Of a DNA stretch of 64,000 bases, positions 1 to 19,927 are shown piece by piece. The stretch lies in the NCBI GenBank assembly GCA_963674595.2, contig CAXXFV010000029.1, positions 96,001 through 160,000 on the forward strand, given 5' to 3'. The notes beneath the pieces are model-generated. The model searched no databases and had not been told where the DNA came from. It was given only the letters and a program-made list of their open reading frames with translations. The translations under genes and the position numbers were made by a program. This DNA is from a bacterium. GTDB taxonomy: Bacteria; Zhuqueibacterota; Zhuqueibacteria; Residuimicrobiales; Krinioviventaceae. How positions within the stretch are numbered: position 1 is the first letter of the stretch; each line of letters opens with the position of its first letter.

Positions 1-406
1 GCGTAATTGCTTTTTTTAATGAATCATTATTTAATATAGTGTTATATTCCGGAAAAAAATCAAGCATACGCTCATTAACCCCTTTTATTTTCCCCTGGTC
101 TATGGCAATTCCAATTAAAGCGGATGTGAATGTTTTTGAAATAGAATAAATGTGATGCTTGCGATTTCTGTCATACTCTTTATAATATTTTTCAAAAACA
201 AGGTGTCCGTTGCGTACAACCAGTACACTGTGAACATCGCCGTAATTATTATCGAGTATTGCCGAGTCCAGTTGTGCAAGTACCCCGGCATTTATATTTT
301 GTTCTTCAGGATTTGAAACAGGAAACGGCATATCACTTTTGGTACTATTATTTTGGCAATGAAGTGATAATGCAATCAAGATCGATAATACATACATAAT
401 TCTCAT
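1..406 (-). CDS. Serine hydrolase / beta-lactamase (class C-like) family lipoprotein, 5' part (runs off window start)
   Basis: Not in the ORF track; translated by hand. ATG at 406 after GGAG gives MRIMYVLSILIALSLHCQ...HSVLVVRNGHLVFEKYY...HHIYSISKTFTSALIGIAIDQGKI, with an SxxK motif and lipobox-like Cys. Confidence 0.85.
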   Translation of the reverse strand, partial: MRIMYVLSILIALSLHCQNNSTKSDMPFPVSNPEEQNINAGVLAQLDSAILDNNYGDVHSVLVVRNGHLVFEKYYKEYDRNRKHHIYSISKTFTSALIGIAIDQGKIKGVNERMLDFFPEYNTILNNDSLKKAIT

Positions 407-488
407 ACAGACTCCTTGTTTTCAGCTAGCATGGTTTTCTTAATTAAAATTTTTGATTGTTCAAGGATTAATACCTTAATGGCGGTAA

Positions 489-585
489 ATCAGCTAAATG
501 ACATCAGGAGTTCCCCTGCTCAACCTGAATAACAATCTTTTGAGGCTGACAGCATAACGATACAGACTTTTCTAAACTAGTGCAA
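489..585 (-). ncRNA. Promoter + hairpin element, copy A (candidate ncRNA/5' leader)
   Basis: -35 TTGCAC (580-585), 17 bp, -10 TATCGT (557-562), then GTCAGC..AAAAGAT..TCAGG-loop-CCTGA.GTCATTT.GCTGAT hairpin (550-489). Homologous to copies at 754 and 9139. Confidence 0.55.
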
Positions 586-642
586 GTATTTTTTGAGAAA
601 TATTCTGGATGTTTTAAGAGGCGTCATCCTGTGCGGCTCCAA

Positions 643-723
643 AGCGGACGCTGAGCGGAGTCGAAGGATTGATCATTCCGGGATTCTACCCCGGTACGGA
701 TTAAAAAGAGGGCTTGGCCCTCC
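643..723 (+). repeat. REP-like modules: AGCGGACGCTGAGCGGAGTCGAAG plus twin-hairpin TGATC..CCGGG..CCCCGG..GAGGGCTTGGCCCTCC
   Basis: First module recurs at ~13314, 15395, 20478, 22589, 25239, 28489. Second recurs at 13111, 14236 and 28103(-). Confidence 0.8.
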
Positions 724-753
724 ATAAAAACCCTCATTTTCCTTATAAAACAC

Positions 754-990
754 TTGCGCCAATTCCATAGAATTTGTATTATTCGTTTATCAGCCATAAA
801 GGACTGTTTTCAGGACAATTGGTCGCGCACGGGAGTTCCTGATGTCCTTTTGCTGATTTACCAGCTTTTTCTTTAATATGGGATTCAAAAGCGCACACGA
901 TAAAGAGATTGCGTCGGTCACAAAATCACGTTCCTGTTATTTCACGGTCGATATTATTGGATGTATGTGGTTTGTCGTTAATAAATTGGA
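754..990 (+). ncRNA. Promoter + hairpin element, copy B, with 3' extension shared with copy C
   Basis: -35 TTGCGC 754-759, 17 bp, TG-TATTAT 777-782. Hairpin 789-857 (ATCAGC/GCTGAT, AAAGGAC/GTCCTTT, TCAGG/CCTGA). 878-964 is ~82% identical to 9251-9337. Confidence 0.55.
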
Positions 991-1163
991 AAATTTATTA
1001 CAGGGAAATCAGCTATCTATTCGTTGTTGTATAACATATATTTGGACAAATTATTTTGAAATCTATCACAAGTTATCAAACTCTTTCAACACTATATTAG
1101 GCATAATAATATTATAATTAATTGTTCCACTCTTTTGAATAGTTTTTTAATATTAAAGGAGGA

Positions 1164-3482
1164 ATGATGAATTTTATAACTTTCTCTAAAACAAATAGGA
1201 TAAAGAAATTTATATTTTGTTTTTCTGCCTACATATTTTTATTTCTCACAAATTCTATAATATCACAAACTATTGAACCAATAAATGAAAGTTTTATGTA
1301 TGGGGAATATGACAATGTTAAAGTAGTAGGAACGAAATTATATTCTACAAATGGTTATGGTTTAAAGATATTTGATATTTCTTCTCCAGATACTCTTATT
1401 CCAATTAGTAATTTTAGAACCGAAGGTATATCTAAAAGACTTTCCAATATAGGGAATAATTATATTGTACTTTCTAATGAAATTGAGGGATCAAAAGGTA
1501 TAGAAATTATTGATGTTCAAAATCCAATAAATCCAAAGGGAGTATGGAGTTATGAGATTCAATGTTATGATCATATTGTAAGAGAAAACAGACTTTATGC
1601 TGCTTGTGAGGGGAGTATAAAAATATTTGATATTAACGATCCAACAAATCCCATATTAATATCAAGCTTTATTCTAAAATCGGCAAGACGCATTTGTTTA
1701 AATGATAATATGTTATACGCTATAATTCCCAATCAGCTATTTGTTATCAATATTAGTGACGAAATTAATCCTGTGACTGTTGGAAGATTGATATTGGATT
1801 ATAATGGTGAAATTAGATATTTAACTTATAATAATTTCCGTCTTTATACTAACAAAAATTATGACATTAGTATAAGTATTAGTGTGTACAATCCATCAAA
1901 TCCTTACATTATAAATGAATTAGATTTGGGTCCTATAGAGATTAGGGACTTTAAATTTTCAAATGATTATTTTTATACGATTGGCAGAATTTCTAATCAA
2001 GTTTATCCTTATCAGGGAATCCTGAAGATTGGTTCAATCAGCAATACAGATCATCCACAAGTTATTGCAGAATATGAATTACCACGTTGGACTGATTTTA
2101 AAGCAATCGATATCAATAATGATTACGCTTACGTTTCTCTTAGTGGTTCAGGTATTCAAGTGATCGACTGTTCGAATCTTGAGCAACCGACTGAAATTTC
2201 ATGGTGGACAGAATCGATTACTCCTGTTATGGATATTTCTTTGGGTGATAATTATGCAATAACAGCTTGTAGTTATGGTATTAAAATTTATGATCTCTCA
2301 ACTCCGCAAAATCCAAGTTTAGTTAGTTCTTTGTACGGTGTGGGATATTATGAATTGTTTTATAGTGAATTAGTAGTTACAAAAATTTTTATAATTAATA
2401 AAAACTCTGCGCTTGCAATTCAACCATATATTGATAATGTGTCACAACTTGTTTTGGATGCTGTTTTAATTGAAACTTCTGACCTTGCTAACCCTGTTGT
2501 TGTTGGCGCACTAGAACACACCGCTGGTTCAAGAGATTTTTTCGTAAATGGAGATTTTTTATATTGTGTCGGTGAGGATTGTGGTTTTACAATCTATAAT
2601 ATTTCTGATCCTTTTTCCCCAAAATTAATTTTGAATACATTTGAAAGTAATTTTCATGGTTGGGGGGTTTCTGTTGTTGGTAAATATGCATACATTACTG
2701 TATCCCATTATATGGGTTATAATAGAGGTCTCTATATTTTTGATATTTCTGACCCAGATAACTTAATAGAAATTGGTCATTGCAAGATGCGGCATGGTGA
2801 CATTGAAATTAAAGAAGATTTTGCTTTTATCGTGACGGATTACTCAGATTTGTACTTTACTAAGTCGGGTGTATTTTTACAAGTTGTTAGTATTACAGAT
2901 CCTTCTAATCCATATCTCATAAAAACAGTTGAAATAGATGATAAATATAAAGAGTATCGTCAATTAAAAATAACAATTAAAGGTAATTATGCATATATCT
3001 CTATGGATGAATTAGGTTTTAAGATAGTTGATATTTCAGACCCACATAATCCGAATATAGTTGCAAAATATGATACCCCTGGATATACTTTAGGGCTTGA
3101 TATTAATAATGATTATATATACACAGCAGATTATTATGATTTAGGAGTATATAAATTTGAACCAGCGGCCGGAGTATCAACTCCTATGAATTCCTTTATT
3201 CCAGATAAATTCTATCTATCTCAAAATTATCCTAATCCTTTTAATCCGACAACTAAAATCCAATATCAATTACCTGAAGCTTGTCATACGAGTGTTAAAA
3301 TCTATAATATTTACGGACAAGAAATAAAAGCTCTTGTTGATCAGAATCAACAATCAGGTATTTATTCTATAGTTTGGGATGGAAAAAATAATGAAGGTAT
3401 GGATGTAAGCTCTGGTTGTTATATTTATACAATACAAGCTGGTGATTTTCGTGCATCGAAAAAAGCTATATTTTTGCATTAA
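1164..3482 (+). CDS. LVIVD-repeat beta-propeller protein with C-terminal FlgD-Ig/T9SS-type sorting domain
   Basis: Many G(L/I)xI(F/Y)DISDPxNP repeats, signal peptide, C-terminal LSQNYPNPFNPTT...WDGKN...SSGCYIY, RBS AAGGAGG. Very AT-rich. Confidence 0.85.
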   Translation: MMNFITFSKTNRIKKFIFCFSAYIFLFLTNSIISQTIEPINESFMYGEYDNVKVVGTKLYSTNGYGLKIFDISSPDTLIPISNFRTEGISKRLSNIGNNYIVLSNEIEGSKGIEIIDVQNPINPKGVWSYEIQCYDHIVRENRLYAACEGSIKIFDINDPTNPILISSFILKSARRICLNDNMLYAIIPNQLFVINISDEINPVTVGRLILDYNGEIRYLTYNNFRLYTNKNYDISISISVYNPSNPYIINELDLGPIEIRDFKFSNDYFYTIGRISNQVYPYQGILKIGSISNTDHPQVIAEYELPRWTDFKAIDINNDYAYVSLSGSGIQVIDCSNLEQPTEISWWTESITPVMDISLGDNYAITACSYGIKIYDLSTPQNPSLVSSLYGVGYYELFYSELVVTKIFIINKNSALAIQPYIDNVSQLVLDAVLIETSDLANPVVVGALEHTAGSRDFFVNGDFLYCVGEDCGFTIYNISDPFSPKLILNTFESNFHGWGVSVVGKYAYITVSHYMGYNRGLYIFDISDPDNLIEIGHCKMRHGDIEIKEDFAFIVTDYSDLYFTKSGVFLQVVSITDPSNPYLIKTVEIDDKYKEYRQLKITIKGNYAYISMDELGFKIVDISDPHNPNIVAKYDTPGYTLGLDINNDYIYTADYYDLGVYKFEPAAGVSTPMNSFIPDKFYLSQNYPNPFNPTTKIQYQLPEACHTSVKIYNIYGQEIKALVDQNQQSGIYSIVWDGKNNEGMDVSSGCYIYTIQAGDFRASKKAIFLH

Positions 3483-3540
3483 TAAAATATAAAATTTAAT
3501 ATCATTAAGTATATGATTCTTTACTAGTCGTTTGCTCCAT

Positions 3541-3669
3541 CGGGAAATCTTCATAGGGGCGGAATTAGGCGGGATAATTACCCAGATAAACGAAAGGTTT
3601 AATGTTGTAAATATTAATATGGGTCCATTATTTAAGAATTGAACAGGGTATATGCCCTGGTTTATTAAA
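3541..3669 (+). repeat. Diverged copy of ~150 bp dispersed element
   Basis: Aligns with 11903-12030 and, on the minus strand, with 20202-20335 and 22308-22445. Confidence 0.7.
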
Positions 3670-3805
3670 TCTCAGAGAATACCCCGGTTCCGCTCGGGAT
3701 GACGTGTAGATGGATTAAAAGCGGTGTTACCCTGAAGCGAAGACAAAGAGTGCCTGGATTCCTGCTTTCCCCCAAATAACAGGCTTCGATCTATATTGAT
3801 ATTAT

Positions 3806-3834
3806 AAAAAAGGCCGGTCAAATAACCGGCCTTT
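3806..3834 (-). terminator. Intrinsic terminator after GH78
   Basis: AAAAAAGGCCGGT-caaata-ACCGGCCTTT hairpin with A/T tails, a few bp past the stop. Confidence 0.75.
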
Positions 3835-3837
3835 GTC

Positions 3838-6800
3838 TTATCTCACACTAAACTCAAAAGTCCCGGATGTCAGCTTCAAATGCGTATACGCCGGGGTTTG
3901 CCCTGCCAGTGTTATTCCTTCCGCAGTGCCCGCCATTTGACCGTTTTCGATGATTTTTTCTCCCGATTCAAATATAACGGGTTTTTCTGTGCCGATATGC
4001 GGCATATAAAAATCCGAGGTGGTGTTGGCCGGAATCACCAGAAAAATCTGAAATCCCTTGTCCTTGTTCTCCCAGGAAATTTTCACATCGCCGTATCCGG
4101 TAGCCAGACTGTAATTGACATAATCCAACCCTTTTACCGGATAGGGCCTGATAATGGAGTTTTTAAATCCCGGTTTATCGGCATCCGGTTTCAGTCCGGC
4201 CAGGTATCCGTAAAACCATTCACCGACAGACCCCAGGGCAAAATGGTTGCGGGAGTTCATACTCGGACCTTCGGTGTCGCTGTTCCACAACTCCCAGATG
4301 GTGGTGGCGCCCTTTTCAACCATATATCCCCAGGAGGGATAGGTGTGCTGGTCGGCAACTTTATAGGCCAGCGCATTGTGACCGTAATCGCTCAGCATGG
4401 GCAGCAAATAGGCGGTCCCTAAAAATCCGGTTGTGAGATGGTTGTCGTGCTTTTTCACGTTATCAACCAGACTGTTAACCACGGCCGCTGTTTCCTGTTC
4501 CGGGGTAATGCCGAATGCCAAAGGCAGCAACTGCGCGGCCTGGGTTTCTCCTTCATAATATCCGGTGGATTTGTTGTAATATTTTTCCTGAAAAGCTTTT
4601 TGGATTTTTTCCGCCAGGGCGTGTAATTCCTGCGCCTCTTGTTTTCTGTCGATAATGTCGGCCATGTGCGCGAGGAGTTTGGTGCTGTAATAAAAATAGG
4701 CCGCGCCGATGGGTTTGGACGGCGATTTTTCAACAGCAATCCAGTCGCCGTAACCCTCCCGGTCATAAATATAATTTTTGCTGTTGTTTTGCATGTATTT
4801 GATCCAGTTATACATGCCGTCAAACTGCTCTTCTATAATACGTTTGTCGCCGTAAAAGCGGTAAATCGTCCAGGGGATGGTGACAACCGCATCACCCCAG
4901 CCCGGTTTGGCCGGTCCTTTAACAGCCAGCGTGGGACTGACATTGTGCACGGCGCCGTCCTCGTCCTGACAATCGGTAATGTCCCGCTGCCATTTTGTAA
5001 AAAAGAGGGCCATGTTGCGGTTATAACAGGCCGTGGGCGCAAATATCTGCGCATCACCCATCCAGCCCAGGCGTTCGTCGCGCTGGGGACAGTCGGTGGG
5101 AACGCTGTGCAGGTTGCCGATCAGGCCCCAGTTGATGTTATGGTGGATGGCATTTATCAGGTCATTGGAACAGGAAAAATCCCCGCTCTGCGGCGCATTG
5201 GAATGCAGCACCATGCCGGTAATCATGTCCTTGTTTGGTTTTTCCGAAATACCGGTCACTTCCACATAACGAAATCCGCGATAGGTAAAATGGGGCATCC
5301 AGGTTTCGGTGCCTGTGCCTTTTAATGTATAAAAATCTGTTGTGCGGGCGTTGCGCAGATTGTCCCGGTACAGTGTACCGTCCGGTTTGAGCAGTTCGGC
5401 AAAACGCAGTTTAACCTGATCACCGGCTTTGCCTTTTACTTTCAGTTCTGCAAATCCCACCATATTTTGACCCATGTCAAATATATAAACACCGGGTTTG
5501 GGTTCGGATATGGAAACCGGCTTGAGCTGATTGGTAATCTGGATGGTCTGCGTCTGTTGACAAACGCGTTTGGCGCCGTTGTCCGGATAAACCGTTGCCG
5601 CTTCCCAGGACGCGTCGTCAAAACCGCCCTTGTCCCAGTCTTTTTGCTCCATACGCGCGTCATATACTTCGCCGTGGTAGACCGTGTTTTCAAGAATGGG
5701 AGAATTTGTAACGCGCCAGGTTTCATCCGTAACAACGGTCTTTTTGGTGCCGTCGGCAAACTCTATTTCAGCCTGCATTAAAAACCGCAGCGGGCCTTCG
5801 CTGTAAATGGCGGCATTGCGTCCGCCCATACCGCTGCTCCACCACATGTTGCCGAGCAGCGCGCCGAATGCGTTTTCGCCTTTTTTGAGAACAGACGTAA
5901 TATCATAGGTCTGGTATTGTATTTTTTGGGGATAATCGGTCCAGCCGGGGGTAAACAGATCGCTGCCGATACGCTGACCGTTTATATAAAGAATATAAGA
6001 ACCGAGTCCGGTCACATAGACACGGGCGCGGGCAATTTTTTTGTCCAGATGTGTTGATTTTCGCACCATGGTTGAACGGGCCGGGGTATGGTGGCCTTCG
6101 AGTACACCCCATTCCGGACCGCCGTAGGGTTCCAGAACTTTAACGGACTGCCAGTTGGTTGTCCGGGTCTGCCAGTCCTGCGATGATGTGGAACATAACC
6201 AGGAACCGTCCGTGTTAACAGCCGATTCTGTGCCGTCGTTATGGGTTATTTTGGCGCTAAAAATCAATCCGCAAATATCACCGGCTGTGTTGGCTGCCTG
6301 AATGGCTATTTTGTTTTCCCCGGATACCAGTTTATCGGTAATATCAAATTCATAAATTTTTGCCCAATGCTTGCCCGAACCGATTTCCCGGCCGTTTATG
6401 TAAAGAGTGAATTTATTGTCCGCTGTTACTTTAACAACAGCCATTTGCACCTGTTTATCCAGGCTAAACGTTTTTTGATAATAAACGGGCGTGTTAATGC
6501 CGATTTCTGTGGGGTGCCAAATCCAGAATCCCCAGGGCCATTTTTTTATTTCCGGTTTGGGCTGCTGTTTTGCACCGACCCACTTTGCCTGCCAGTCATC
6601 AGGGTCCAGCAGACCCGTTTCCCAGCACGCCGGGGCGCTGAATGACAGGGGCTGTCCCTTTTCGTCCCATATTTTTACCTTCCAGAAATATTTTTTCCCG
6701 GAACGCAGTTTTTTGCCTTTACAGGGAACATGCACCGACTGGTCTGATTCGACTTTGCCGCTGTCCCATACATCTCCATCATCGTTTTGCAGTTGCTCCA

Positions 6801-7038
6801 GTGAACCGGCAACGAGAATATGATAAGCGGATTGGCCGCTTCCTCGGTGAACATGAGGCACGTGCCAGGACAGTCTCGGGGAGGGGCTGTCAATTCCCAG
6901 CGGGTCAGTTTGATATTCACATTTCAGTTCATAGGCTTTATCCGGCATTTGTTTTTCCTTTACGCAGCTAGGGTGAAAAAGGCAAAAAATAATTATTAAA
7001 ATACTCGCTGATAAAATTTTGTTGAAAAATCCGGGCAT
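3838..7038 (-). CDS. Alpha-L-rhamnosidase, GH78, probable lipoprotein
   Basis: PTDCPQRDERLGWMGDAQ, GATTIWELW, SRNHFALG and DMGQNMVG motifs. ATG 7038 follows GGAGG. FHPSC lipobox-like. Confidence 0.92.
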   Translation of the reverse strand: MPGFFNKILSASILIIIFCLFHPSCVKEKQMPDKAYELKCEYQTDPLGIDSPSPRLSWHVPHVHRGSGQSAYHILVAGSLEQLQNDDGDVWDSGKVESDQSVHVPCKGKKLRSGKKYFWKVKIWDEKGQPLSFSAPACWETGLLDPDDWQAKWVGAKQQPKPEIKKWPWGFWIWHPTEIGINTPVYYQKTFSLDKQVQMAVVKVTADNKFTLYINGREIGSGKHWAKIYEFDITDKLVSGENKIAIQAANTAGDICGLIFSAKITHNDGTESAVNTDGSWLCSTSSQDWQTRTTNWQSVKVLEPYGGPEWGVLEGHHTPARSTMVRKSTHLDKKIARARVYVTGLGSYILYINGQRIGSDLFTPGWTDYPQKIQYQTYDITSVLKKGENAFGALLGNMWWSSGMGGRNAAIYSEGPLRFLMQAEIEFADGTKKTVVTDETWRVTNSPILENTVYHGEVYDARMEQKDWDKGGFDDASWEAATVYPDNGAKRVCQQTQTIQITNQLKPVSISEPKPGVYIFDMGQNMVGFAELKVKGKAGDQVKLRFAELLKPDGTLYRDNLRNARTTDFYTLKGTGTETWMPHFTYRGFRYVEVTGISEKPNKDMITGMVLHSNAPQSGDFSCSNDLINAIHHNINWGLIGNLHSVPTDCPQRDERLGWMGDAQIFAPTACYNRNMALFFTKWQRDITDCQDEDGAVHNVSPTLAVKGPAKPGWGDAVVTIPWTIYRFYGDKRIIEEQFDGMYNWIKYMQNNSKNYIYDREGYGDWIAVEKSPSKPIGAAYFYYSTKLLAHMADIIDRKQEAQELHALAEKIQKAFQEKYYNKSTGYYEGETQAAQLLPLAFGITPEQETAAVVNSLVDNVKKHDNHLTTGFLGTAYLLPMLSDYGHNALAYKVADQHTYPSWGYMVEKGATTIWELWNSDTEGPSMNSRNHFALGSVGEWFYGYLAGLKPDADKPGFKNSIIRPYPVKGLDYVNYSLATGYGDVKISWENKDKGFQIFLVIPANTTSDFYMPHIGTEKPVIFESGEKIIENGQMAGTAEGITLAGQTPAYTHLKLTSGTFEFSVR

Positions 7039-7228
7039 TTTTTCCTCCTGCACTTTTTTATTAAAAACGAATCCAACAAATTTTCAATGGTATTTAAACA
7101 ATGGTTCAATGTGAAAGGATATTATATTAAAATTTTATGTAATGGAATAAACCTCCATGTTAATTTTTTTCTGCAATTCTTTATGTGAAAAATTTAAGTA
7201 ATCCTGTTTATTATTCCGGTTCTTCTTA

Positions 7229-7378
7229 AACGCAGAGCCGCAAAGGTCGCAGAGGAATAACCAAGTCATCTGGATTCCTGCTTTCGCAGGAATGACGTAT
7301 CACGATTATTTGAACTGAATCAAATGAATGTATCATTATCTATTTTTTCTTTGTGTTCCTTTGTGTGCTTTGTGGTTC
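7229..7378. repeat. REP cluster (AACGCAGAGCCGCAAAGG; CTGGATTCCTGCTTTCGCAGGAATGAC; CTTTGTG iterations)
   Basis: Modules recur at 8717, 8973, 13261, 27594, 27826 / 3754, 17435 / 15527, 17270-17400, 18370, 27883. Confidence 0.75.
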
Positions 7379-7452
7379 AAAATATAAGGGATTCTACTTT
7401 TTATCTAATCTCATTCAACGTAAAGGTCACAATAATTAAAGCACACACTTTT

Positions 7453-8484
7453 TTATAACGGCAAAGAAACCGTTTTACCGGTCTTAATACTGTCCATAAC
7501 CGCCTGGGTAAATTCCATATACTTGCAGGCGTCTTCAAATGTTGTGTGTTTGATCATTTCCATACCGCGAATGGCGTTGATAAACTCTTCCTCAACCCGC
7601 CAGACACCGATCATTTCAGGCGGAATTTTTATTTCTTTAAATTTGGCCGTCTTTTTCTGGGCGCCATAAATTCTGTTGCCTGAAAATTTCAAGGTACCAT
7701 TGTCGCCGTAAATACAAACACCGCTTTCCCCGGCCAAACCCGTTACTTTGGAAATATGAAAATGGGCCTGTGCCCCGCATGCCATGTCGGCAATGACGTT
7801 GAGGTGGTCGGGTATTTGAATGGACTGGAGTTCCTCATTTTCGTTTTGCCGGGTTTTCACAAATATTTTCCCCATGGCCGTCACCCGAACCGCCGGTCCC
7901 AGCCAGCGCATGACGGTTTCATACCAGATCCCCAGGGACATGGTGTTGTACCCGCTTTTATTAATATCTTCGCGCCAGGTTATTTTTTGTTCCCTGTTTA
8001 TAAAATCATTGCCGTCATGGACCGTTACCACCAAAGGCGTACCGATATGCCCCTCGGCGAGAATGCGTTTTATCGCATCATCATGGGAAAGAGAAAAGGG
8101 GGCCGGAACGATCTGTGTAACCAGATGCGGTTTTTGCCGGGCCGTATCCCGCATAATCTGCGCTTCTTTGGCGTTCATGGCCATTCGTGCTTCGCACAGG
8201 ACATGCTTGTCCGCATTCAGGGCCGCCATGGTCGCGGGAAAATGCATGTTCGGCCAGGTGCCGATAACCACTGCCTGAATGTCCGGGGAGGCAACAAGCT
8301 CGGACCAATGGTTGAATGCCAGGGGAATTCTCAATGCTCTGGTGGCTTTTTGTGTGGATTCCGGTGTGCTGTTGCAAATCGCCGCTATTTCAACGTTTTT
8401 TATCTTTTTAAATCCGGGGATATGTCTGCTTTTTGTGTTTTCACCTGCACCGATTATGCCGATACGAATCGGTTTTTCTGTCAT
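7453..8484 (-). CDS. Gfo/Idh/MocA family oxidoreductase
   Basis: IGIIGAG Rossmann start; KHVLCEARM variant of the EKP motif. Confidence 0.9.
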   Translation of the reverse strand: MTEKPIRIGIIGAGENTKSRHIPGFKKIKNVEIAAICNSTPESTQKATRALRIPLAFNHWSELVASPDIQAVVIGTWPNMHFPATMAALNADKHVLCEARMAMNAKEAQIMRDTARQKPHLVTQIVPAPFSLSHDDAIKRILAEGHIGTPLVVTVHDGNDFINREQKITWREDINKSGYNTMSLGIWYETVMRWLGPAVRVTAMGKIFVKTRQNENEELQSIQIPDHLNVIADMACGAQAHFHISKVTGLAGESGVCIYGDNGTLKFSGNRIYGAQKKTAKFKEIKIPPEMIGVWRVEEEFINAIRGMEMIKHTTFEDACKYMEFTQAVMDSIKTGKTVSLPL

Positions 8485-8714
8485 GGTTTCACTCCTGTGA
8501 ATAATATAAAATAATCCTGAATCAATAATATAAAAAAGATAATTTTAAATTACAAATTATCTCAGGGATTTTCAAAACCGGTCCTTGTGTATAATGAACG
8601 CTGTTATGAGTGTTAAAAATATAAAAAATTATACATGTAAATTGTGATCTGATTCAAACAAGACCACAAGTAATAAAAAAAATTTTATATGTTCTTTGTG
8701 TGCACTCAAAGAGA

Positions 8715-8996
8715 TTCAACGCAGAACCGCCGAGTTCGCCAAGGTTCGCAGAGGAATACCTGAAAATATCCCGATTCCTGATTTCTATATATATAACAAA
8801 AATGTCATGCCGGAGGCATCTTTCCTGACGTTGAATCGGGTCTTTATTCCGGCAAGATTCATACAGAATGACATGTTTAGATTTGTGTTGAAATGAAAAG
8901 TATTATTCTTTGTGTCCTTAATCTATGCTCCGTGTCCGTTGTGTTAGAAAAATAATCATCAAAAAATGATTCAACGCAGAGCCGCAATGGTCACAG
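8715..8996 (+). repeat. ~250 bp composite repeat containing a 71 bp MITE-like element (8803-8873)
   Basis: Reverse-complement homologue of the tandem units at 27595-28043. TGTCATGCCGGAGGCATCT...AGATTCxTACAGAATGACA imperfect TIRs. Confidence 0.8.
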
Positions 8997-9138
8997 TGTT
9001 CTTTACAAATCCATATCCCCTCTGCGTTCCTCAGCGAGCTCTGAGCCTTTGCGTTTTAAGCGTTTCTGATACGTCGTAATTTTGAGTAATTACCAATCCT
9101 TATAGTAAAGTACCACTCCCATTTTTCTCAAATATCAC

Positions 9139-9362
9139 TTGCGCTCATTTTATAGAATTTGTAATATTCGTTTACAAGCCATAAAGGACTCTTTTTCAGG
9201 TCGAGTTCGGGCGTACCTGATGTCCTTTAGCCGGTTTTCTTTACATTAAAATGGAATTCAAAAGCACATCCGAGAAAGATATTGCATCGGTCACAGAATT
9301 ATATTGCTGTTATTTCACAGTCAATATTATTGTATATGGTGTGCCCGGCAGTCATAAATTTG
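9139..9362 (+). ncRNA. Promoter + hairpin element, copy C
   Basis: TTGCGC 9139-9144, 17 bp, TG-TAATAT 9162-9167. Hairpin 9174-9235 (AAAGGAC/GTCCTTT, TCAGG/CCTGA). Extension homologous to copy B. Confidence 0.55.
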
Positions 9363-9431
9363 AATCTATGGTTTTACAATCCATAGTTAGTTGGCAGGCT
9401 TGTTCAATACTTGATCATCCGGAGAATATCC

Positions 9432-9800
9432 ATGAACTATCATATCGATATTGATAATAAGAATAAGGTTGTTCTGTGTACCTGCAGCGGAGTGCTTGAT
9501 GTGACATCGACAACATTAATGACCAGAGATGTTCGCAAAAGGGCCTTTGATTTGGGTTATGTCTCGCTTTATGACGTAACGAATGTCTCTCTGGATGTTG
9601 GCATTATAGATGCCTATTCCTTCCCGCGAGATATAAAAAAAATATATGAAAAATCCCAGCACCGTTTTGGTAAAGCAGCAGTTGTTTATAAAAACGATGT
9701 AAATTTCTGGAAATTTTTCGAAAACACATCACGAAATACCGGACTGGATATTATGGTCTTTGATGAGAGAGAACAGGCCTTAAAATGGTTGTCTGAATAG
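9432..9800 (+). CDS. Hypothetical protein, STAS/SEC14 (SpoIIAA-like) fold probable
   Basis: ATG 9432 after GGAG. KAAVVY...FFEN...RNTG..IMVFDEREQALKWL C-terminus is typical of this small family. Confidence 0.65.
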   Translation: MNYHIDIDNKNKVVLCTCSGVLDVTSTTLMTRDVRKRAFDLGYVSLYDVTNVSLDVGIIDAYSFPRDIKKIYEKSQHRFGKAAVVYKNDVNFWKFFENTSRNTGLDIMVFDEREQALKWLSE

Positions 9801-9962
9801 TAAATCATCAACCAATTTAATAAACCGGAATTAAAAAACCATGCAAAATAGCTGGCTGGGTCCCAAAAAATGAAAACAGCCGCCAACTCGTTCGGTTTTG
9901 TTATACATAATTATCAAACTCGATCAATTTCAGGTTATACAAAAATAATTGGATAAACAGAT

Positions 9963-10952
9963 ATGGCAAAAATATCCTGGGGCGTCCTAAGTACGGCGAA
10001 TATTGGAACTGAAAAGGTAATCCCTGCCATGCAAAAGGGGAAATACTCGAAAATTAGTGCCATCGCCTCGCGCCGTCAAGCCAAAGCAGAACAAGCTGCT
10101 CAGGCACTCGGCATTCCAAAAGCCTATGGTTCCTATGAGGCATTGCTGGATGACCCTGAAATTGATGCTGTTTATATACCCCTCCCGAATCATCTGCATG
10201 TTGAATGGGCTGTAAAATCTTTAAAAGCCGGAAAACACGTTTTATGTGAAAAGCCGATCGCCTTAAATTTTGAACAGGCTGAATATTTAAGCAGAAAAAT
10301 TAAGGAATTTCCTGAATTAAAAATAATGGAAGCATTTATGTATCGCTTTCATCCCAGATGGCAGACTGTGAAAAAGTTAATTGCCGATGGAACAATCGGC
10401 ACGGTAAAGCATATTTATTCAATCTTTTCATTTTATGAGGATGATCCGGCCCATATTTGTAATCAGCCTGAACTTGGAGGCGGCGGTTTATTGGACGTCG
10501 GTTGTTATTGTATATCCCTGGCCCGTTTTATATTTAACAAAGAACCTGTTCGTGTTATGGGGGCTATGGAGAACGATCCCAAAATGAAAATAGATCGTCT
10601 TGTATCGGCAATATTGGATTTTGAAGATGGAACCTCCACATTTACCTGTTCAACTCAACTGGCAGATCGTGAATATGCGGACATATTGGGAACTGACGGC
10701 AGAATAGAAATTGAAAATCCGTTTGCGCCTTCACCCGATAGTACAAGCAAAATAATTCATCAGGCAGGACCGGAAACAAGGGAAATAGTTTTTGACGCCT
10801 GTAATCAATATACATTGCAGGGCGATTTGTTTTCTCAGGCAATATTGTCAGATTCAGATGTACCAACTCCTATAGATGATGGCGTTGCAAACATGAAAGT
10901 TTTGGACAACATAAAAAAAAGCTGCCAAAAAGGCAAGTGGATTGAAATGTAA
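9963..10952 (+). CDS. Gfo/Idh/MocA family oxidoreductase
   Basis: WGVLSTANI, YIPLPNHLH, KHVLCEKP, EAFMYRFHP, GGGGLLDVGCY. Confidence 0.92.
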   Translation: MAKISWGVLSTANIGTEKVIPAMQKGKYSKISAIASRRQAKAEQAAQALGIPKAYGSYEALLDDPEIDAVYIPLPNHLHVEWAVKSLKAGKHVLCEKPIALNFEQAEYLSRKIKEFPELKIMEAFMYRFHPRWQTVKKLIADGTIGTVKHIYSIFSFYEDDPAHICNQPELGGGGLLDVGCYCISLARFIFNKEPVRVMGAMENDPKMKIDRLVSAILDFEDGTSTFTCSTQLADREYADILGTDGRIEIENPFAPSPDSTSKIIHQAGPETREIVFDACNQYTLQGDLFSQAILSDSDVPTPIDDGVANMKVLDNIKKSCQKGKWIEM

Positions 10953-11020
10953 AATCGTTAATATATTTTATTTCAAAGATATTTTCAGATTCCTGCTATA
11001 TATATAACAAAAAACAAAAA

Positions 11021-11090
11021 TGTCATGCCGGAGGCATCTTTCTGACGTTGATTAGGATATTTATTCCGGAAAGATTCTTACAGAATGACA
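11021..11090 (+). repeat. 71 bp MITE-like element copy
   Basis: TGTCATGCCGGAGGCATC...AGATTCTTACAGAATGACA. Other copies at 8803, 20110(-), 27702(-), 27955(-). Confidence 0.8.
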
Positions 11091-11145
11091 CTCTAATTTG
11101 CAGTGACCGTTTTCACAGGAATGAGGTGTCTCGAAAAATTAGGGC

Positions 11146-11237
11146 TTGATTTTTTTTAAATTATCCGTTACAATAAAGTATAATTGTTGTTTGGCAACTT
11201 TATGCAGGTCGAAGAGGTCCATAAAGTGGTTTTTTTG
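11146..11237 (+). promoter_or_regulatory. Sigma70-like promoter followed by a hairpin + U-tract
   Basis: TTGATT 11146-11151, 17 bp, TACAAT 11169-11174. ACTTTATG..CATAAAGT hairpin (~11197-11227), then GGTTTTTTTG. Confidence 0.45.
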
Positions 11238-11249
11238 TAGCAAACCAAA

Positions 11250-11437
11250 TGCCGGAAATTTACGGCACTTTTTAACAGGGGTAACGGACTTGTGGCTAAC
11301 TACTTATTTATCAGTAAAATAGTTGTGATAAAAAGGGACTGAAAAGTGAAAAAATCGTCTCTGAAAATTCTTTTTTATGGGGGTAACGGTATTCGCCTTT
11401 GTAACATACTGAATATTCATGGTTTGCAAAGCAGGCA
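11250..11437 (+). promoter_or_regulatory. CRISPR leader
   Basis: AT-rich non-coding DNA directly before the first intact repeat. GGGGTAACGG occurs at 11278 and 11380, each followed by a TAAC...IHF-like tract. Confidence 0.65.
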
Positions 11438-11702
11438 GTAGAAATAGACCTAATCACCACGGAGGGATTGAGACATTTAACCACATTGCCATCATTTTTG
11501 AAAGCAAAAACTTCATGTAGAAATAGACCTAATCACCACGGAGGGATTGAGACAGTATCCACTTTGTTTGTTGTATAAGGACGTGGCACTTGCCGTAGAA
11601 ATAGACCTAATCACCACGGAGGGATTGAGACGTAAATACGAGCATCTGATAACAGATTAAGCCTTAATCTATGTGGAAATAGACCTAATCACCACGGAGG
11701 GG
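11438..11702 (+). CRISPR. Orphan CRISPR array: 3 identical 37 bp repeats + 1 truncated repeat, 3 spacers (42, 41, 41 bp)
   Basis: GTAGAAATAGACCTAATCACCACGGAGGGATTGAGAC at 11438-11474, 11517-11553, 11595-11631; degenerate copy from 11673. ATTGAGAC 3' end, leader on the left and decay on the right give + orientation. No cas gene recognised in the window. Confidence 0.93.
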
Positions 11703-11902
11703 CCGTTTGCGGCAGGTTCGAAAATATTGTTCTTTATAAAGTGTTTTGCAATGTTACAGAAGCCATAACCTATGGTAAGCGTCCTTGCGTCGCTATGCTC
11801 CGCTGAGATTGAGAACTAATAAAAACGAATCAAAGAAAGACCTGATCACCACGGAGGGGCCGTTTGCGGCAGGTTCGGGAGTATTGTTCTTCTGCTCTAC
11901 TT

Positions 11903-12064
11903 GGGAATCTTTCCCAAGGCGCAAATTAACCGGGGTATTTACCCCGATAAACCCAAGGTTTATTGATGTAAATAATAATATGGGCCCGTTATTTGAGAAC
12001 TGATCAGGGCAAAATGCCCTGGTTTATTTAACGCCCCGGAAAAGGAATTCCGGGGCGAGCAAAG
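11903..12064 (+). repeat. ~150-160 bp dispersed element with several short hairpins
   Basis: CGGGGTATTTACCCCG, AGGGCAAAATGCCCT, GCCCCGGAAAAGGAATTCCGGGGC. Inverse homologue of 22276-22445. Confidence 0.8.
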
Positions 12065-12145
12065 AGTTATAAAATATATACTATGTCATCAAACTCGTTT
12101 AATCCTATGTTATACAAGTAATTAATTATAATATCAGGAGTGAGG

Positions 12146-13087
12146 ATGTTAATGATTGATAAGTTGATAGCTGTTGATTTGAGAGAAATTTGGAGGAATG
12201 AAGCTCGAAATTTTACTACTTGGTTATTCAATAATTTAGATATTTTAAATGAGCAGATAGGACTTGATTTGAGTTCTTTGGAAACTGAAAAATCCGCAGG
12301 TGTTTTTTCAGTTGATATATTAGCAGAAGATAGGAGTGGCAGATTAGTAATAATTGAAAATCAGCTTGAAAAAACTGATCATGACCATCTTGGTAAAGTA
12401 TTAACATATTTAGCAAATTTAAGTGCCAAGATTGGGATATGGATTTCTCCTGATCCACGTCCTGAGCACGCGAAGACAATTGATTATTTAAATGAAATCG
12501 CACCTGACGACACTCATTTTTTCTTAATAAAAATACAAGCATTCAAAATAGGGGAATCTAAGCCTGCTCCTTTTTTTTCTATAATTGCAGGACCAAATCC
12601 TGAAGTTACTGCTGGAGGGAAAATAAAAAAAGAATTAGCGGAAAGTGGTCAAAAGAGGTATATGTTTTTTGAACAATTACTGACCTTATCAAATAAAAAA
12701 ACAAATCTATTTAATAATATATCTCCTAATGCATATCAGGGGTGGGTTGGAGCAGGAGCAGGTAAATTTGGCCTTGCGTGGAATTATGTTATCATGTTAT
12801 CAAAAAGTAGGATTGAATTTTTTATTTGTTCTCCAGATGCTGAACTAAACAAAAAAAGGTTTGAATATTTCTTTTCTCATAAAAATGAAATTGAAAATGA
12901 TTTTGGTGGTAAAATAGATTGGGATTTTAAGGAAGGTCGAAAACAACATTACATAAAATCATGGTCAAATACTGGTGGTCTCCAAGATGAAGAAAAATGG
13001 TTAAAAATACAAGAAGATCTTATAGATAAAATGGTTAGACTAGAAAGGGTTTTACATAAATACATATTAAAAATTAATAATATATAA
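12146..13087 (+). CDS. DUF4268-domain protein with N-terminal NucS/EndoMS-like PD-(D/E)XK-type domain
   Basis: LREIWRNEARNFTTWL, SVDILAED...VIIENQLEKTDHDHLGKVLTY, KNEIENDFGGKIDW. AGGAG before ATG 12146. Confidence 0.78.
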   Translation: MLMIDKLIAVDLREIWRNEARNFTTWLFNNLDILNEQIGLDLSSLETEKSAGVFSVDILAEDRSGRLVIIENQLEKTDHDHLGKVLTYLANLSAKIGIWISPDPRPEHAKTIDYLNEIAPDDTHFFLIKIQAFKIGESKPAPFFSIIAGPNPEVTAGGKIKKELAESGQKRYMFFEQLLTLSNKKTNLFNNISPNAYQGWVGAGAGKFGLAWNYVIMLSKSRIEFFICSPDAELNKKRFEYFFSHKNEIENDFGGKIDWDFKEGRKQHYIKSWSNTGGLQDEEKWLKIQEDLIDKMVRLERVLHKYILKINNI

Positions 13088-13110
13088 ATTTTTATATGAT
13101 AATAAAAAAC

Positions 13111-13380
13111 TGATCATCCCGGGGCTTTACCCTGGGACGTAATAAACCGAGGGTTTGGCCCTCCAACTTGGTGAACGATTATAGTCTGTGCCCATTTTCA
13201 GCCTTAAGCTGTTGTTCTACCGCACCATTGTGTGATTAATTCAAAAATCAATTCAGCTTTAACGCAGAGGCCGCAAAGGTGCGCAGAGGAAACCGGGAAC
13301 AAAATAAACTTAAAGCGGACACTGAGCGGAGTAAAAGCGAGGTACTTTTGGGATGGGGGATAAAATCCCGGTTTTATTGA
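13111..13380 (+). repeat. Composite 3'-flanking repeat
   Basis: 13111-13200 matches 14236-14322 and 28055-28154(-). 13186-13380 is collinear with 15317-15450. Confidence 0.8.
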
Positions 13381-13580
13381 GCGGAAAAATATTTTATATG
13401 TAAAGTTAAAAAAATAATGTAAATTCTATATGGATTCCTTATTCGTCAAGTGACAAGGTAAACAGAATTTAATTGTTTATCCAAATTCTCTTACTTTCAT
13501 TGTCGGCCCGGTTAAATGCTAAATGATGCATAAAATAAACCCTAATATTTTTTCACAATTAAAAAGTAGCGAGGTGAAAA

Positions 13581-14174
13581 ATGGCCAATTCTCAACATCC
13601 AAAAACGAGTGCAAAGGTACAACCCCTGCTTACTGAGGAAGAACGAACTGCATGTGAAAACATAAGCTTATCTGAAGACTTTGGAAAACATGCAAAGGCT
13701 TTGCTTGCTTTAGACCAGGGACTTACACAAGCTCAGGCTGCTGAAAAAAGCGGTCTCTCTGCCGGGCAGGTGCGTTACTGGATTGCAAAATTTAAAAAAG
13801 AGAGATTGAATATTTTTCCAGAGCCAACCCTGTCACAACTCTCTGTAAAAAGTGAGCCTCTCGTTCAAGAAAAATCCGAGACGGAAAATAAAACAGATGA
13901 GGCTAAAGAACAAAAAGTCCCTAAAAAAAGTTCAAAGCCGAAAAAGAAAGATTCTAAAAAACAGGAAAAAACAAAGGCAAAATCTCAAAAAGATAAAAAG
14001 AAATCCAAAAAAAATAAAGAAAAGGATTCTCCCAAGAAAAACAAGAAAGATTCTTCTAAAAAAAGTAAAAAAAAGGATTCACCCAAAAAAGAAAAAAAAG
14101 GGGATAAAAAGAATAAATCATCAAAGAAAAAGGACAAAAAAGTAAAAAAGAGCAAAAAGACCAGGAAAAAATAA
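13581..14174 (+). CDS. HTH-domain protein with histone H1-like Lys/Ser-rich tail
   Basis: AKALLALDQGLTQAQAAEKSGLSAGQVRYWIAKF (HTH). ~85-aa tail with repeated KKDSPKK/KKDSSKK. RBS GAGGTG. Confidence 0.75.
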   Translation: MANSQHPKTSAKVQPLLTEEERTACENISLSEDFGKHAKALLALDQGLTQAQAAEKSGLSAGQVRYWIAKFKKERLNIFPEPTLSQLSVKSEPLVQEKSETENKTDEAKEQKVPKKSSKPKKKDSKKQEKTKAKSQKDKKKSKKNKEKDSPKKNKKDSSKKSKKKDSPKKEKKGDKKNKSSKKKDKKVKKSKKTRKK

Positions 14175-14444
14175 GTATGTTTAGTTGGTCACCCTGTCCG
14201 GCAAGCCTGCAGCAAAAGTTGATTCTGGTGGTACTTTCGTCCTTAAGCCCTACACTGTGACGTAATAAACTGAGGGCCAGGCCCTCCAACTTTTTGAATA
14301 ATTGCAGGCTGTGCCCATTTTTAGGTCCCGGCAACAGACTAAAATTTGGTACAGAAAAGTTGGGTTTAATGGAATGAACAACTTACAACTGAATGCAGTC
14401 ACTGTAAATATAACTAAAATAAAACCATGTTAGAGTTTTAGAAT

Positions 14445-15296
14445 ATGAAAAAAAATCAAATATTTTGGATATTAGGAATTGTTATTTTATGCAGTATAAA
14501 ATTATTTTCTCAAGGTAATAATGAAAGAGATATAATTTTATTTGAAAAATCTTTTGAAAACAATGATATTGAAATGTTGGATCATTTTTTTGAAACTTGG
14601 GAAAATCAATCAACCCCAATATCAAAAAATGAACTCTCAAAACTATCTAAAATTAAAAAATATACTTATTCTCTTTTTCAAACATTTTATTATCCTTTCG
14701 GAATTCATGAAAGAGATATTCCAAAAGAATTTCGCAAAAAAAACTCTGATCCTGATTCTTTGGAAAAGTTATTTTTACCATATAAAAAACCAGAGTATAT
14801 TATTTTACAGAATAATATTTATATGGGAATAGTAAATGATTTTAAAAAAATAATAGATACAAATGAGTTTAATGTAGATCAATTTATTGTTTCTAAGGAT
14901 AGCATTTTAAATTTTCGCCCGACTGTTGATGTAAAAAATAAAAAAGGATTATTTATAAAAGAAAAATATTATGATATTTTTTATGATTTTGTGATGGATA
15001 GTTTAGAATATTTGGCTCGCGGAGATGAAAAAGATCATGAAATGTATTTAGATCTATGTAAAGTTGCTGATAGAAAAATGGATTTTTTAAAATCAAAAAT
15101 TGGTATACAATATGGCCATTGGGGAGGAATTCATGTCGAAACATTGCCATTTGTACATCTAATCTTGTTTAATAAAGGAATGTGGTTGGCAAAAGTTTAT
15201 TTTAGAGAAACCTGGTGGACTGGTGGAGAGGCTTATTATATTCGAATAGGAAATATATGGATCAAATTATACAGAGGGCAAACCTGGATTCAATAA
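14445..15296 (+). CDS. Hypothetical secreted protein
   Basis: 283-aa ORF in very AT-rich DNA with a signal-peptide-like N-terminus. Confidence 0.7.
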   Translation: MKKNQIFWILGIVILCSIKLFSQGNNERDIILFEKSFENNDIEMLDHFFETWENQSTPISKNELSKLSKIKKYTYSLFQTFYYPFGIHERDIPKEFRKKNSDPDSLEKLFLPYKKPEYIILQNNIYMGIVNDFKKIIDTNEFNVDQFIVSKDSILNFRPTVDVKNKKGLFIKEKYYDIFYDFVMDSLEYLARGDEKDHEMYLDLCKVADRKMDFLKSKIGIQYGHWGGIHVETLPFVHLILFNKGMWLAKVYFRETWWTGGEAYYIRIGNIWIKLYRGQTWIQ

Positions 15297-15316
15297 ATTA
15301 GACAAAAGTTACTCGC

Positions 15317-15450
15317 AGGCTGCGCCCATTTTCAGCCGCAGGGTTTGGTTCTACTGCACCATTGTGTTAAAATTAAATTCAAAAAAGTGTCACCTTGAGC
15401 GGAGTAGAAGGGTGATACTTTTGGGATGGGGATGAAATTTCGGTTTTATT
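15317..15450 (+). repeat. Composite 3'-flanking repeat copy
   Basis: GCCCATTTTCAGCC..TTCTAC.GCACCATTGTGT..TGAGCGGAGTA..TACTTTTGGGATGGGG..CGGTTTTATTG shared with 13186-13380. Confidence 0.75.
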
Positions 15451-15675
15451 GGTTCTGCGGGCTATGCCTTCCTATATGCACAAAACTGGCATGTCATACA
15501 CTGACATAAAATAGCATTTTTCCCTTCTTTGTGATCTCCGTGCCCTTTGTGAGAAAAAAGTTACACCGTTCCTCAAATTTCACCCCCCCTTTCCCAAAAT
15601 CCAACAATAAATTGGGTTGCATTCCAGCTTAAAATCTTTTATTTTATTTAAATTTTTTAAGAGGAGGATGCAACG

Positions 15676-17253: not shown

Positions 17254-17269
17254 CAGGTATTTTATTCTT

Positions 17270-17520
17270 CACACAAAGAACACAAAGTGAAAATGAATAT
17301 TTTCTTCTTTGTGACAATTATGTTAAACGAGATACAGATTAAAAAGTAGACTTTTTTAACCACAAAGGACACAGAGATTACACAAAGAACACAAAGAAGG
17401 AACAATATCTATTTAATTTCAAAGACCGAGTCCTGCCATTGCTGTGAATGCAGGAATCCGGATATTTTTTCAGTTTTCTTTGTGAACCTTGTGTTAAACG
17501 AGATACAGATTAAAAAGTAA
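17270..17520. repeat. CACAAAG-type REP iterations and a 28 bp direct repeat
   Basis: ACACAAAGAACACAAAG repeated; TGTTAAACGAGATACAGATTAAAAAGTA at ~17321 and ~17492. Confidence 0.7.
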
Positions 17521-17549
17521 GATTATTTTATTTAAGAGGAGATATTATT

Positions 17550-18320
17550 ATGGCTGATGTCATTGATTACAAAATAATCGGCGACGATATGCAGTTGGTG
17601 GAAATTGAACTGGACCCCGGTGAAGGCGTTCGCGCAGAAGCCGGCGCCATGACATATATGGAGCAGGGTATTGAAATGCAAACCGGTGCAGACGGCGGCC
17701 TTTTTAAAGGATTCAAACGTATGCTGACCGGTGAGAGTTTTTTCATCACCACGTTTATGTATAACGGACGCGGTAAGGGTCATGTTGCATTTGGCGCACC
17801 CTATCCCGGAAAAATCATTCCCCTGGAAATAGGCCAACTCGGCGGACAGTTTTTGTGTCAAAAAGACGCGTTCCTGTGCGCTGCCAAAGGTGTGGACATA
17901 GAAATTGCGTTTACCAAACGCATCGGCGCAGGTTTGTTCGGCGGTGAAGGTTTTATCTTACAGCGTTTGGAAGGCGACGGCCTGGCCTTTGTTCATGCCG
18001 GCGGTACTATTGTAAAAAAAGAGCTGGCTTCCGGCGAACGTTTACGTGTGGATACCGGCTGTTTGGTGGCGTTTTCACCCACAGTCGATTATGACATTCA
18101 ATTCATCGGCGGATTTAAAAACGCCCTGTTTGGCGGTGAAGGTGTTTTTCTCGCCAATTTGACCGGCCCCGGAACGGTTTATCTGCAAAGTCTGCCGTTC
18201 TCCAGACTCGCGGACCGCATTTTTGCCGCATCAAGATCCAATCGCGGTGAAAGCAAAGGTGTTGCCGGTATTGGCGGTGATCTGCTGGGCGGATTACTCG
18301 GCGGTGACAAAAATTTTTAG
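17550..18320 (+). CDS. TIGR00266 / AIM24 family protein
   Basis: [47 protein letters not shown]. Confidence 0.92.
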
Positions 18321-18329
18321 TATATGCAC

Positions 18330-19923: not shown

Positions 19924-19927
19924 TGTG

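Follow-up and report, generated by a model that had tools for sequence, protein, structure and literature searches.

The window analysed here, a 64,000-nucleotide (nt) stretch of contig CAXXFV010000029.1 (C29 in what follows) from the 6.6 Mb, 37-contig assembly GCA_963674595.2 of a Zhuqueibacterota bacterium, carries several copies of a repeated unit of about 240 nt. The unit consists of an A-tract, a −35-like and a −10-like hexamer set 17 bp apart and a leader of about 190 nt with two hairpins and a G/T-rich end. It is probably a lineage-specific sigma-70-type promoter with a co-transcribed 5′ leader, which has been spread by copying and now stands before unrelated genes. This reading is built on the family itself, its copy number, its orientation, the boundaries of the unit, the unrelated genes that follow it (its cargo) and the covariation in its first hairpin, all of which were observed directly. 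A preliminary description of the window, based on three copies (A, B and C), had put forward a portable promoter-leader expressing acquired genes as one of its interpretations; this idea fits the 96% co-orientation with the next gene, the unrelated and mostly accessory cargo, the absence of an Rfam match and the compensatory changes described below.

The order of elements after the hexamers is the same throughout the family consensus: hairpin 1, a conserved linker, hairpin 2 and a G/T-rich stretch, after which similarity ends. At the other side, conservation begins at the A-tract next to the −35-like hexamer, with a weaker and subfamily-specific similarity over the 30–80 nt further upstream. 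The most conserved columns of the family are the two hexamers and the bases immediately preceding the second of them. An imperfect hairpin starts 6–7 bases past this second hexamer in copies A, B and C, and direct reading confirmed the 17 bp spacing of the hexamers that had been described for all three.

The unit recurs far beyond chance. BLAST with copy B gave 40 scored matches in the source genome (72–86% identity over 100–210 nt), and iterated nhmmer searches raised the number of matches from 80 to 120 and then to 124, on 20 of the 37 contigs, with 63 matches of at least 190 nt. With a covariance model restricted to the leader, 90 matches are obtained in the same genome. The copies are clustered: 26 are found on C29 (249 kb), 12 on C26 and ten on C13 (85 kb), with only ten on the 850 kb contig C16 and none on the 421 kb contig C4. 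When the whole window was scanned with Rfam 15, one tRNA alone attained its gathering threshold and no family matched the unit; a relaxed scan of positions 400–1150 gave top scores of 18.8 bits (228.9 required) and 16.2 bits (55 required), with E values of 2.2 and 9.4, which is the level of chance. The preliminary description had not matched the unit to SRP, 6S, hammerhead or common riboswitch RNAs, and the Rfam scan bears this out.

The placement of the copies is strongly directional. Using crude gene calls (non-overlapping open reading frames, ORFs, of at least 90 aa, covering 89% of the genome), only two of the 124 copies lie inside an ORF and 122 are intergenic. The next gene is co-oriented with the unit in 117 of these 122 (96%), compared with 92 of 122 for the upstream gene, and the proportion is 88 of 92 when copies scoring at least 50 bits are considered. 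The end of the unit lies at a median of 149 nt from the ORF start, with a range from under 0 to over 900 nt, and back-to-back divergent pairs of copies occur. A riboswitch-type cis-regulator was set aside in view of this range of distances and of the functionally unrelated cargo.

Indeed, the genes downstream of the unit are unrelated and mostly accessory. Tabulating the first genes, as the preliminary description had suggested, gave 91 genes that blastp sorts into 83 clusters, 79 of which have a single member. The spread of the unit has therefore not been tied to that of its cargo. We surveyed the first ORF behind each of the 80 best copies with Pfam (77 had such an ORF; a family was accepted at an E value of 1e-5 or better). 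Families of many kinds were found in 46 of the 77, and none in the other 31. Seven of the 46 matched genes encode a type IX secretion sorting domain. Surface proteins are represented by LVIVD, PA14, BNR and RHS-repeat families, and defence-type cargo by GmrSD, a type I restriction R subunit, TIR, caspase, Schlafen/AlbA_2, KAP NTPase and SNF2 helicase families. Gp49-type toxins and sensor kinases also occur, together with more ordinary enzymes (Lnt, AhpC-like, radical SAM and methyltransferase). Finally, NCBIfam identifies one first gene as an integron integrase (TIGR02249, 454 bits for a cut-off of 265) and another as a REP-associated tyrosine transposase (85.5 bits for a cut-off of 80).

The promoter-like part also occurs on its own. 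A weight matrix made from the first 40 family columns (threshold 14 bits) detects 164 sites in the genome, of which 42 are not in the nhmmer list and correspond to the promoter part without a recognizable leader. Three of these 42 are in ORFs, and 38 of the 39 others point at the next gene. Terminator-like sites show some enrichment over the 150 nt upstream of the unit (20 of 91 copies), and those between the unit and the ORF (six of 83 copies) do not exceed background; in the controls, 84 of 599 gene ends were followed by such a site and 40 of 598 gene starts were preceded by one (per 150 nt). Taken together, the orientation, the weight-matrix sites and the placement of the terminators are consistent with a unit that stands at the head of a transcription unit and whose transcript would continue into the gene. 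The same counts bear on the small-RNA reading raised in the preliminary description, in which some 90 free-standing genes for trans-acting small RNAs would lie upstream of genes by happenstance. Such genes would account for a conserved, structured RNA-like sequence with its own putative promoter and no Rfam match, but they would not be expected to lack terminators at their ends, and the six terminator-like sites behind 83 units do not exceed the background rate. Moreover, the tight, oriented placement at a median of 149 nt before an ORF does not suit them, and a search of the genome for complements found, outside the copies, only imperfect matches of 16–21 nt, at chance level. We regard free-standing small RNAs as extremely unlikely.

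The RNA-level evidence is centred on hairpin 1, which is supported by compensatory changes. In a MAFFT alignment of 40 copies, 84.6% of the cells of the three-helix structure are paired, compared with 33–50% when the partners are slid by one to three columns, and the proportion is 85.3% in 84 model-aligned matches (78 distinct). Among the 78 distinct model-aligned copies, 22 of the 28 pairs have changed on both sides, and all seven pairs of the middle helix covary. Cells with changes on both sides number 123, compared with 52 in shuffled controls, and none of 500 shuffles attains 123. An alignment-free test led to the same helices: the two arms of a given copy pair better with each other than arms swapped among copies, and, of about 700 segment pairs, the three that rank highest are exactly the hairpin 1 helices (z scores of −3.2, −2.7 and −2.5). 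Finally, G–U pairs outnumber A–C mismatches (178 versus 83), which favours an RNA transcribed from the promoter's strand rather than a DNA cruciform or an RNA from the opposite strand.

In individual copies the picture is more varied. The preliminary description had drawn the hairpin in all three copies: B and C do fold as a nested three-helix hairpin (−22.9 kcal/mol, z score −2.8, and −19.4 kcal/mol, z score −1.9, respectively), whereas A does not have it as its minimum-energy structure (z score +0.33). The apical loop had also been described as variable, which turns out to be an artefact of comparing three copies: over 40–84 copies the apical region is among the best conserved, and A and C are deletion variants. 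This removes the basis for the suggestion that the unit is a guide-like scaffold with a variable loop, for which a complementary partner was also not found in the genome.

Hairpin 2 is of a different nature. Its sequence is nearly invariant, 86–90% of its cells are paired in the 78 distinct copies, and its support comes mainly from conservation and from mean pair probabilities over 50 copies; in copy B itself, two of its five outer pairs are mismatched. It replaces an earlier proposal for this region, a fold of the additional 110 nt or so shared by B and C with seemingly compensatory changes, which was not borne out, the family supporting instead the hairpin at 900–935 in B. This part of the unit contains a conserved alternative start codon (909–911 in copy B), four bases past a purine-rich run. 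We may wonder at this stage whether the 3′ half of the unit acts through translation, the codon of hairpin 2 opening a short upstream ORF whose translation or sequestration controls the downstream gene. The codon is kept in 58 of the 78 distinct copies, and its frame stays open for a median of 31 codons before a stop, compared with 14 and 21 in the other frames. In the copy that precedes the integron integrase gene, it is the sole table-11 start ahead of the conserved domain (the model match begins at residue 16), and there it probably starts a real protein. However, no codon-position effect is seen (0.32, 0.28 and 0.30 off consensus at positions 1, 2 and 3), a stop is reached within five codons in seven of 57 copies, the ends of the peptides vary widely and the stems of hairpin 2 explain the same bases, all of which makes a translational role very unlikely. 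A protein-coding small ORF was rejected on similar grounds, the hairpin 2 frame being without a third-position excess, and so was a coding reading of the ORFs at 878–1117 and 9251–9454, whose ATG is not conserved across the family.

The way in which the unit spread can be approached by comparing copies. Aligned pairs have a median identity of 78%, and 12 pairs reach at least 88%; 11 of these 12 share one contig, within a few kilobases. In most of the 12 the similarity does not extend beyond about −35 to +208 of the unit, the flanks being unrelated. This suggests that a discrete piece of about 240 nt has undergone local copying or gene conversion over a long period. Such a pattern could also be that of a DNA-level mobile or recombination element, such as a non-autonomous transposable repeat or a recombinase target, in which the hairpin would act in single-stranded DNA while the promoter-like appearance and the orientation would be by-products of insertion survival. 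The discreteness of the copied piece and the near-identical copies a few kilobases apart with unrelated flanks would agree with this, as would the presence of the REP-associated tyrosine transposase and integron integrase genes, each with a copy directly upstream, and the richness of the genome in other palindromic repeats beside the copies. On the other hand, no terminal inverted repeats are common to B and C, the two copies tested (their inverted pairs differ and none joins the ends of the unit), the 5′ boundary is fuzzy with its subfamily-specific upstream extensions, and the hairpin is internal rather than terminal. The single orientation toward the downstream gene in 96% of cases, together with the divergent pairs, does not fit attC sites; G–U pairs exceed A–C mismatches by about two to one; and the strongest conservation is found in the promoter-like hexamers. 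We consider a mobile or recombination element unlikely. A miniature inverted-repeat transposable element or a Correia-like element was rejected in the same way, B and C having no terminal inverted repeats at the unit ends.

Several observations weigh against a promoter with a co-transcribed leader. Promoter activity, the start site and co-transcription are deduced from sequence. The sigma-70 scan does not call the promoter site of copy B, because its first hexamer matches the Escherichia coli consensus in three of six positions only and the scan requires four. At the RNA level, RNAalifold returned no consensus structure on 50 or 64 copies and a mutual-information scan was without a helix pattern, both methods suffering from the indels in the middle helix; a simple covariation ranking likewise failed to single out the helices. 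The z scores of single-copy folds are modest, from +0.3 to −3.2 over 12 copies, with five weaker than −1. The shuffle control overstates significance, since the structure guided the alignment and only paralogues from one genome were compared, and hairpin 2 carries little covariation because it is conserved in sequence. Cross-species conservation cannot be called upon, as the family was found in no other genome searched. Finally, neither the search of the genome for complementary RNA nor the inspection of NusG paralogues yielded a candidate binding partner.

Among described systems, the unit is nearest in kind to putative mobile promoters (PMPs; PMC3575422), and dispersed repeats that carry promoters, for example the Correia elements (PMC2649163), resemble it closely too. 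PMPs are highly similar non-coding sequences found upstream of non-paralogous genes within one genome (Matus-Garcia, Nijveen & van Passel; PMC3575422). Their families are mostly pairs and are defined by at least 80% identity over at least 50 nt (50–100 nt), between −150 and −50 of the start codon (PMC3575422); Correia elements, ERIC and REPIN/REP are also named in the same article. The present unit has in common with PMPs the similar non-coding sequence before non-paralogous genes, a presumed rewiring of transcription, an unexplained mode of movement and, as for most PMPs, the absence of an Rfam match (PMC3575422). It differs from them in its number of members (about 90–124), its length of about 240 nt, its position, mostly farther upstream, its covariation-supported 5′ hairpin and its lower identity (median 78%). 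As for the operational definition, some pairs of units exceed 80% identity, but the −150 to −50 window would mostly miss the unit because it ends at a median of 149 nt before the ORF.

In the abstract of PMC2649163, the Correia elements of Neisseria are described as enclosed by inverted repeats, with a promoter possible at either or both ends. They share with the present unit a dispersed intergenic location, a copy number of about 100 or more and the ability to supply promoters, the last being putative here; they are also transcribed together with adjacent genes, in the form of a hairpin encountered by RNA-processing enzymes, and this too may have its counterpart in the unit (PMC2649163). Compared with the elements described there, the unit is without terminal inverted repeats (in B and C) and has one putative promoter and one orientation. 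The family is set apart from both kinds of element: it is strictly one-directional, has no terminal inverted repeats in B and C, is very numerous and has a long leader with a covarying 5′ hairpin.

Three other types of hairpin or repeat deserve comparison. ERIC and REPIN/REP sequences are, like the unit, palindromic intergenic repeats, and are often transcribed, and REPs, which are short palindromes present in both orientations, are tied to the RAYT transposase. The source genome does encode a REP-associated tyrosine transposase, but the unit is long, directional and promoter-led. Hairpins at the 5′ end of an mRNA, of which the ompA 5′ untranslated region is an example, slow 5′-end-dependent decay and are single-gene features. 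Hairpin 1 would likewise lie at or near the 5′ end of the mRNA; the difference is that the same hairpin would head about 100 mRNAs. Lastly, attC sites come after their gene, line up in unidirectional arrays beside the integrase and carry complementary core sites at the stem base. The unit resembles them in forming imperfect hairpin repeats, alike within a single genome, between unrelated accessory genes, including toxin–antitoxin genes, in a genome that encodes an integron integrase, but the units precede genes, form divergent pairs and are scattered over 20 contigs. Identity with attC was rejected on these grounds (co-orientation with the downstream gene in 117 of 122 cases versus 92 of 122 with the upstream gene, divergent pairs and no array at intI); core sites were also not seen on reading the family consensus, to which no attC model was applied.

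We infer a cis-regulatory role for the unit, for which the following mechanism can be proposed. The module would join a sigma-70-type promoter to the first 190 nt or so of its own mRNA. The leader would open, a few bases past the predicted start, with a three-helix hairpin of about 70 nt bearing a conserved apical sequence, and would continue through hairpin 2 and the G/T-rich stretch into the downstream gene, at a median of about 150 nt further on. Copied as a discrete module of about 240 nt before some 100 unrelated, mostly accessory transcription units, it would provide all of them with an identical start signal and an identical 5′ RNA end. We can only guess at the benefit: the 5′-terminal hairpin might protect these mRNAs from 5′-end-dependent decay, and the conserved loop and hairpin 2, which seem to resemble a protein-binding surface, might offer a single trans-acting protein one shared binding site from which to tune the entire set. 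In its strongest form, the leader would define an RNA-level regulon of the accessory genome, with about 100 operons equipped with one 5′ receiver, a single trans-acting factor that reads it, as a master switch for the acquired genes, and a dedicated copy mechanism that installs the receiver before new arrivals; this we consider quite unlikely. The putative members of such a regulon are defence systems, toxin–antitoxin pairs, type IX secretion cargo, sensor kinases, the integron integrase and the REP-type transposase.

If the unit is an active promoter-leader, it would exemplify promoter reuse on an unusually large scale and in an unusually clean form, in which a piece of about 240 nt drives and tags about 5% of the transcription units, mostly accessory ones. 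It would then raise the questions of how newly acquired genes get expressed and whether a shared 5′ RNA structure co-ordinates them, and would give a little-studied lineage a compact, naturally occurring part made of promoter and leader. The weight of these considerations is limited by the single uncultured genome and by an expression that is predicted. The size of the family, its strict orientation and its shared structured leader nevertheless recommend it as a case in which to study how accessory genes come by expression signals and share them.

We then looked for the unit beyond the source genome. BLAST detected it in none of 40 relatives, and the covariance model, a search that the preliminary description had also called for, found no match in 18 genomes from its family, where 150 candidates were scored in each, or in 124 genomes from its class, where only 23 were scored in each under stricter filters; in the source genome it finds 90. 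Searches of phage and plasmid collections gave no match, nor did the ten loci searched upstream of Lnt homologues, out of 68 fetched. The closest Lnt relatives are from metagenome-assembled genomes labelled Ignavibacteria or Bacteroidota, at only 43–46% identity, and the lineage is therefore poorly sampled. A metagenome scan with the radical SAM protein of one copy found a single relative, at 29% identity. Near-identical strains are present in runs of three other studies, as judged by comparing the contigs of four runs with positions 1–20000 of the window; over this range, the contigs show nothing on transcription or on mobility of the unit. In one of these studies, a contig joins position 8697 to position 8932 of the window, so that the related strain is without the 234 nt (8698–8931) directly upstream of copy C.

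As regards possible partners, a specialized NusG antiterminator for the leaders was considered and rejected, since neither of the two NusG-domain genes of the genome is linked to a unit. One is the housekeeping gene, beside ribosomal protein genes, and the other is inside a polysaccharide-export locus (L201, G000:C7:119000-127279; gene at 6342-6866 on the plus strand), where it follows SLBB and Wzz/GNVR tyrosine-kinase-type genes and resembles locus-specific NusG paralogues.

Within the window, the three copies first described were recovered by nhmmer at 479–594 (minus strand), 747–962 (plus) and 9130–9333 (plus), and the similarity in B extends to about 985 (Table 1). Copy B is the top match of both nhmmer (198 bits) and the covariance model (156 bits, at positions 787–947). 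Copy C scores 139 bits with nhmmer (model positions 1–215) and 108 bits with the covariance model (positions 9172–9320). The mean column identity of the three-way alignment of A, B and C is 68%. Copies A and B stand back to back and face divergent genes, as had been noted. A fourth copy, a relic on the minus strand, reaches into the 3′ end of a convergent ORF. The genes downstream of A, B and C were correctly described as unrelated: they encode a serine hydrolase, an LVIVD protein and a protein whose SpoIIAA/STAS-like match is below the cut-off and which has no NCBIfam match. A GFO/IDH/MocA oxidoreductase gene (9963–10952) comes after the latter.

Table 1. Copies of the unit in the window, parts of copy B and genes facing the copies
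Feature	Position	Strand	Description
Copy A	479–594	−	Truncated: promoter-like part and hairpin 1 only (model positions 1–123); nhmmer 68 bits, covariance model 38 bits; hexamers 585–580 and 562–557
Copy B	747–985	+	Full-length, from the A-tract to the G/T-rich 3′ end, with the promoter-like hexamers and both leader hairpins
Copy B, promoter-like core	754–782	+	A-tract 747–750; −35-like hexamer 754–759, 17 bp spacer, −10-like hexamer 777–782
Copy B, hairpin 1	789–857	+	Outer helix 789–794/852–857, middle helix 798–804/844–850, inner helix 810–815/837–842; conserved apical region 816–836
Copy B, hairpin 2	900–935	+	Helices 900–904/931–935 and 907–910/924–927; 5′ arm purine-rich, Shine–Dalgarno-like
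Copy B, G/T-rich 3′ end of conserved unit	958–985	+	Conservation stops here (anchored flank profile, 55 copies)
Copy C	9130–9345	+	Full-length, with a small deletion in the apical region of hairpin 1; hexamers 9139–9144 and 9162–9167
Relic copy	22175–22226	−	Promoter-like part and first bases of hairpin 1 (model positions 3–54); nhmmer 28.7 bits
Gene facing copy A	2–406 (5′ part; remainder precedes the window)	−	Beta-lactamase-family serine hydrolase, 343 aa; Pfam PF00144, E value 2.9e-28, on the full ORF (locus L001)
Gene facing copy B	1164–3482	+	LVIVD-repeat protein with FlgD-Ig-like C-terminal domain (Pfam)
Gene facing copy C	9411–9800	+	129-aa protein; weak SpoIIAA/STAS-like Pfam match, 23.6 bits (below the cut-off of 25)

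Other features were seen in and around the copies. In copy B alone, positions 852–862 (3′ arm of hairpin 1 and linker) are 91% complementary to the 11 nt at 1003–1013, a possible alternative pairing whose equivalent is absent from copy C. Other families of short palindromic repeats recur between genes and the unit, in the window at 621–700 and 8975–9060 and in the upstream flanks of many copies. Elsewhere on C29, a tandem duplication of about 1 kb with 96% identity (G000:C29:48755-49781 and 50087-51115) holds a Gp49-type toxin gene, a 97-aa partner ORF and the start of the next copy of the unit. The REP-associated tyrosine transposase gene (L050, 2618-3163, minus strand) is flanked by two direct copies of the unit.

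The integron integrase ORF (15821-16813, minus strand, of locus L131, G000:C3:100000-119999) has a copy directly upstream and is surrounded by genes for a type IX secretion cargo protein, a DUF5677 protein and a phage terminase-like protein. No attC-like array and no array of units lies beside it at this locus, and an integron array was rejected as an explanation of the repeats found there, which have a period of about 74 nt, are CRISPR-like and adjoin Cas1. These repeats form two arrays, at 1-2350 and 8300-11850 of the locus. Between the two arrays are encoded a Card1-type CARF nuclease, a 990-aa fusion and Cas1, the fusion combining a reverse transcriptase, an AEP primase (TOTE) domain and a Mu Gam-like domain.

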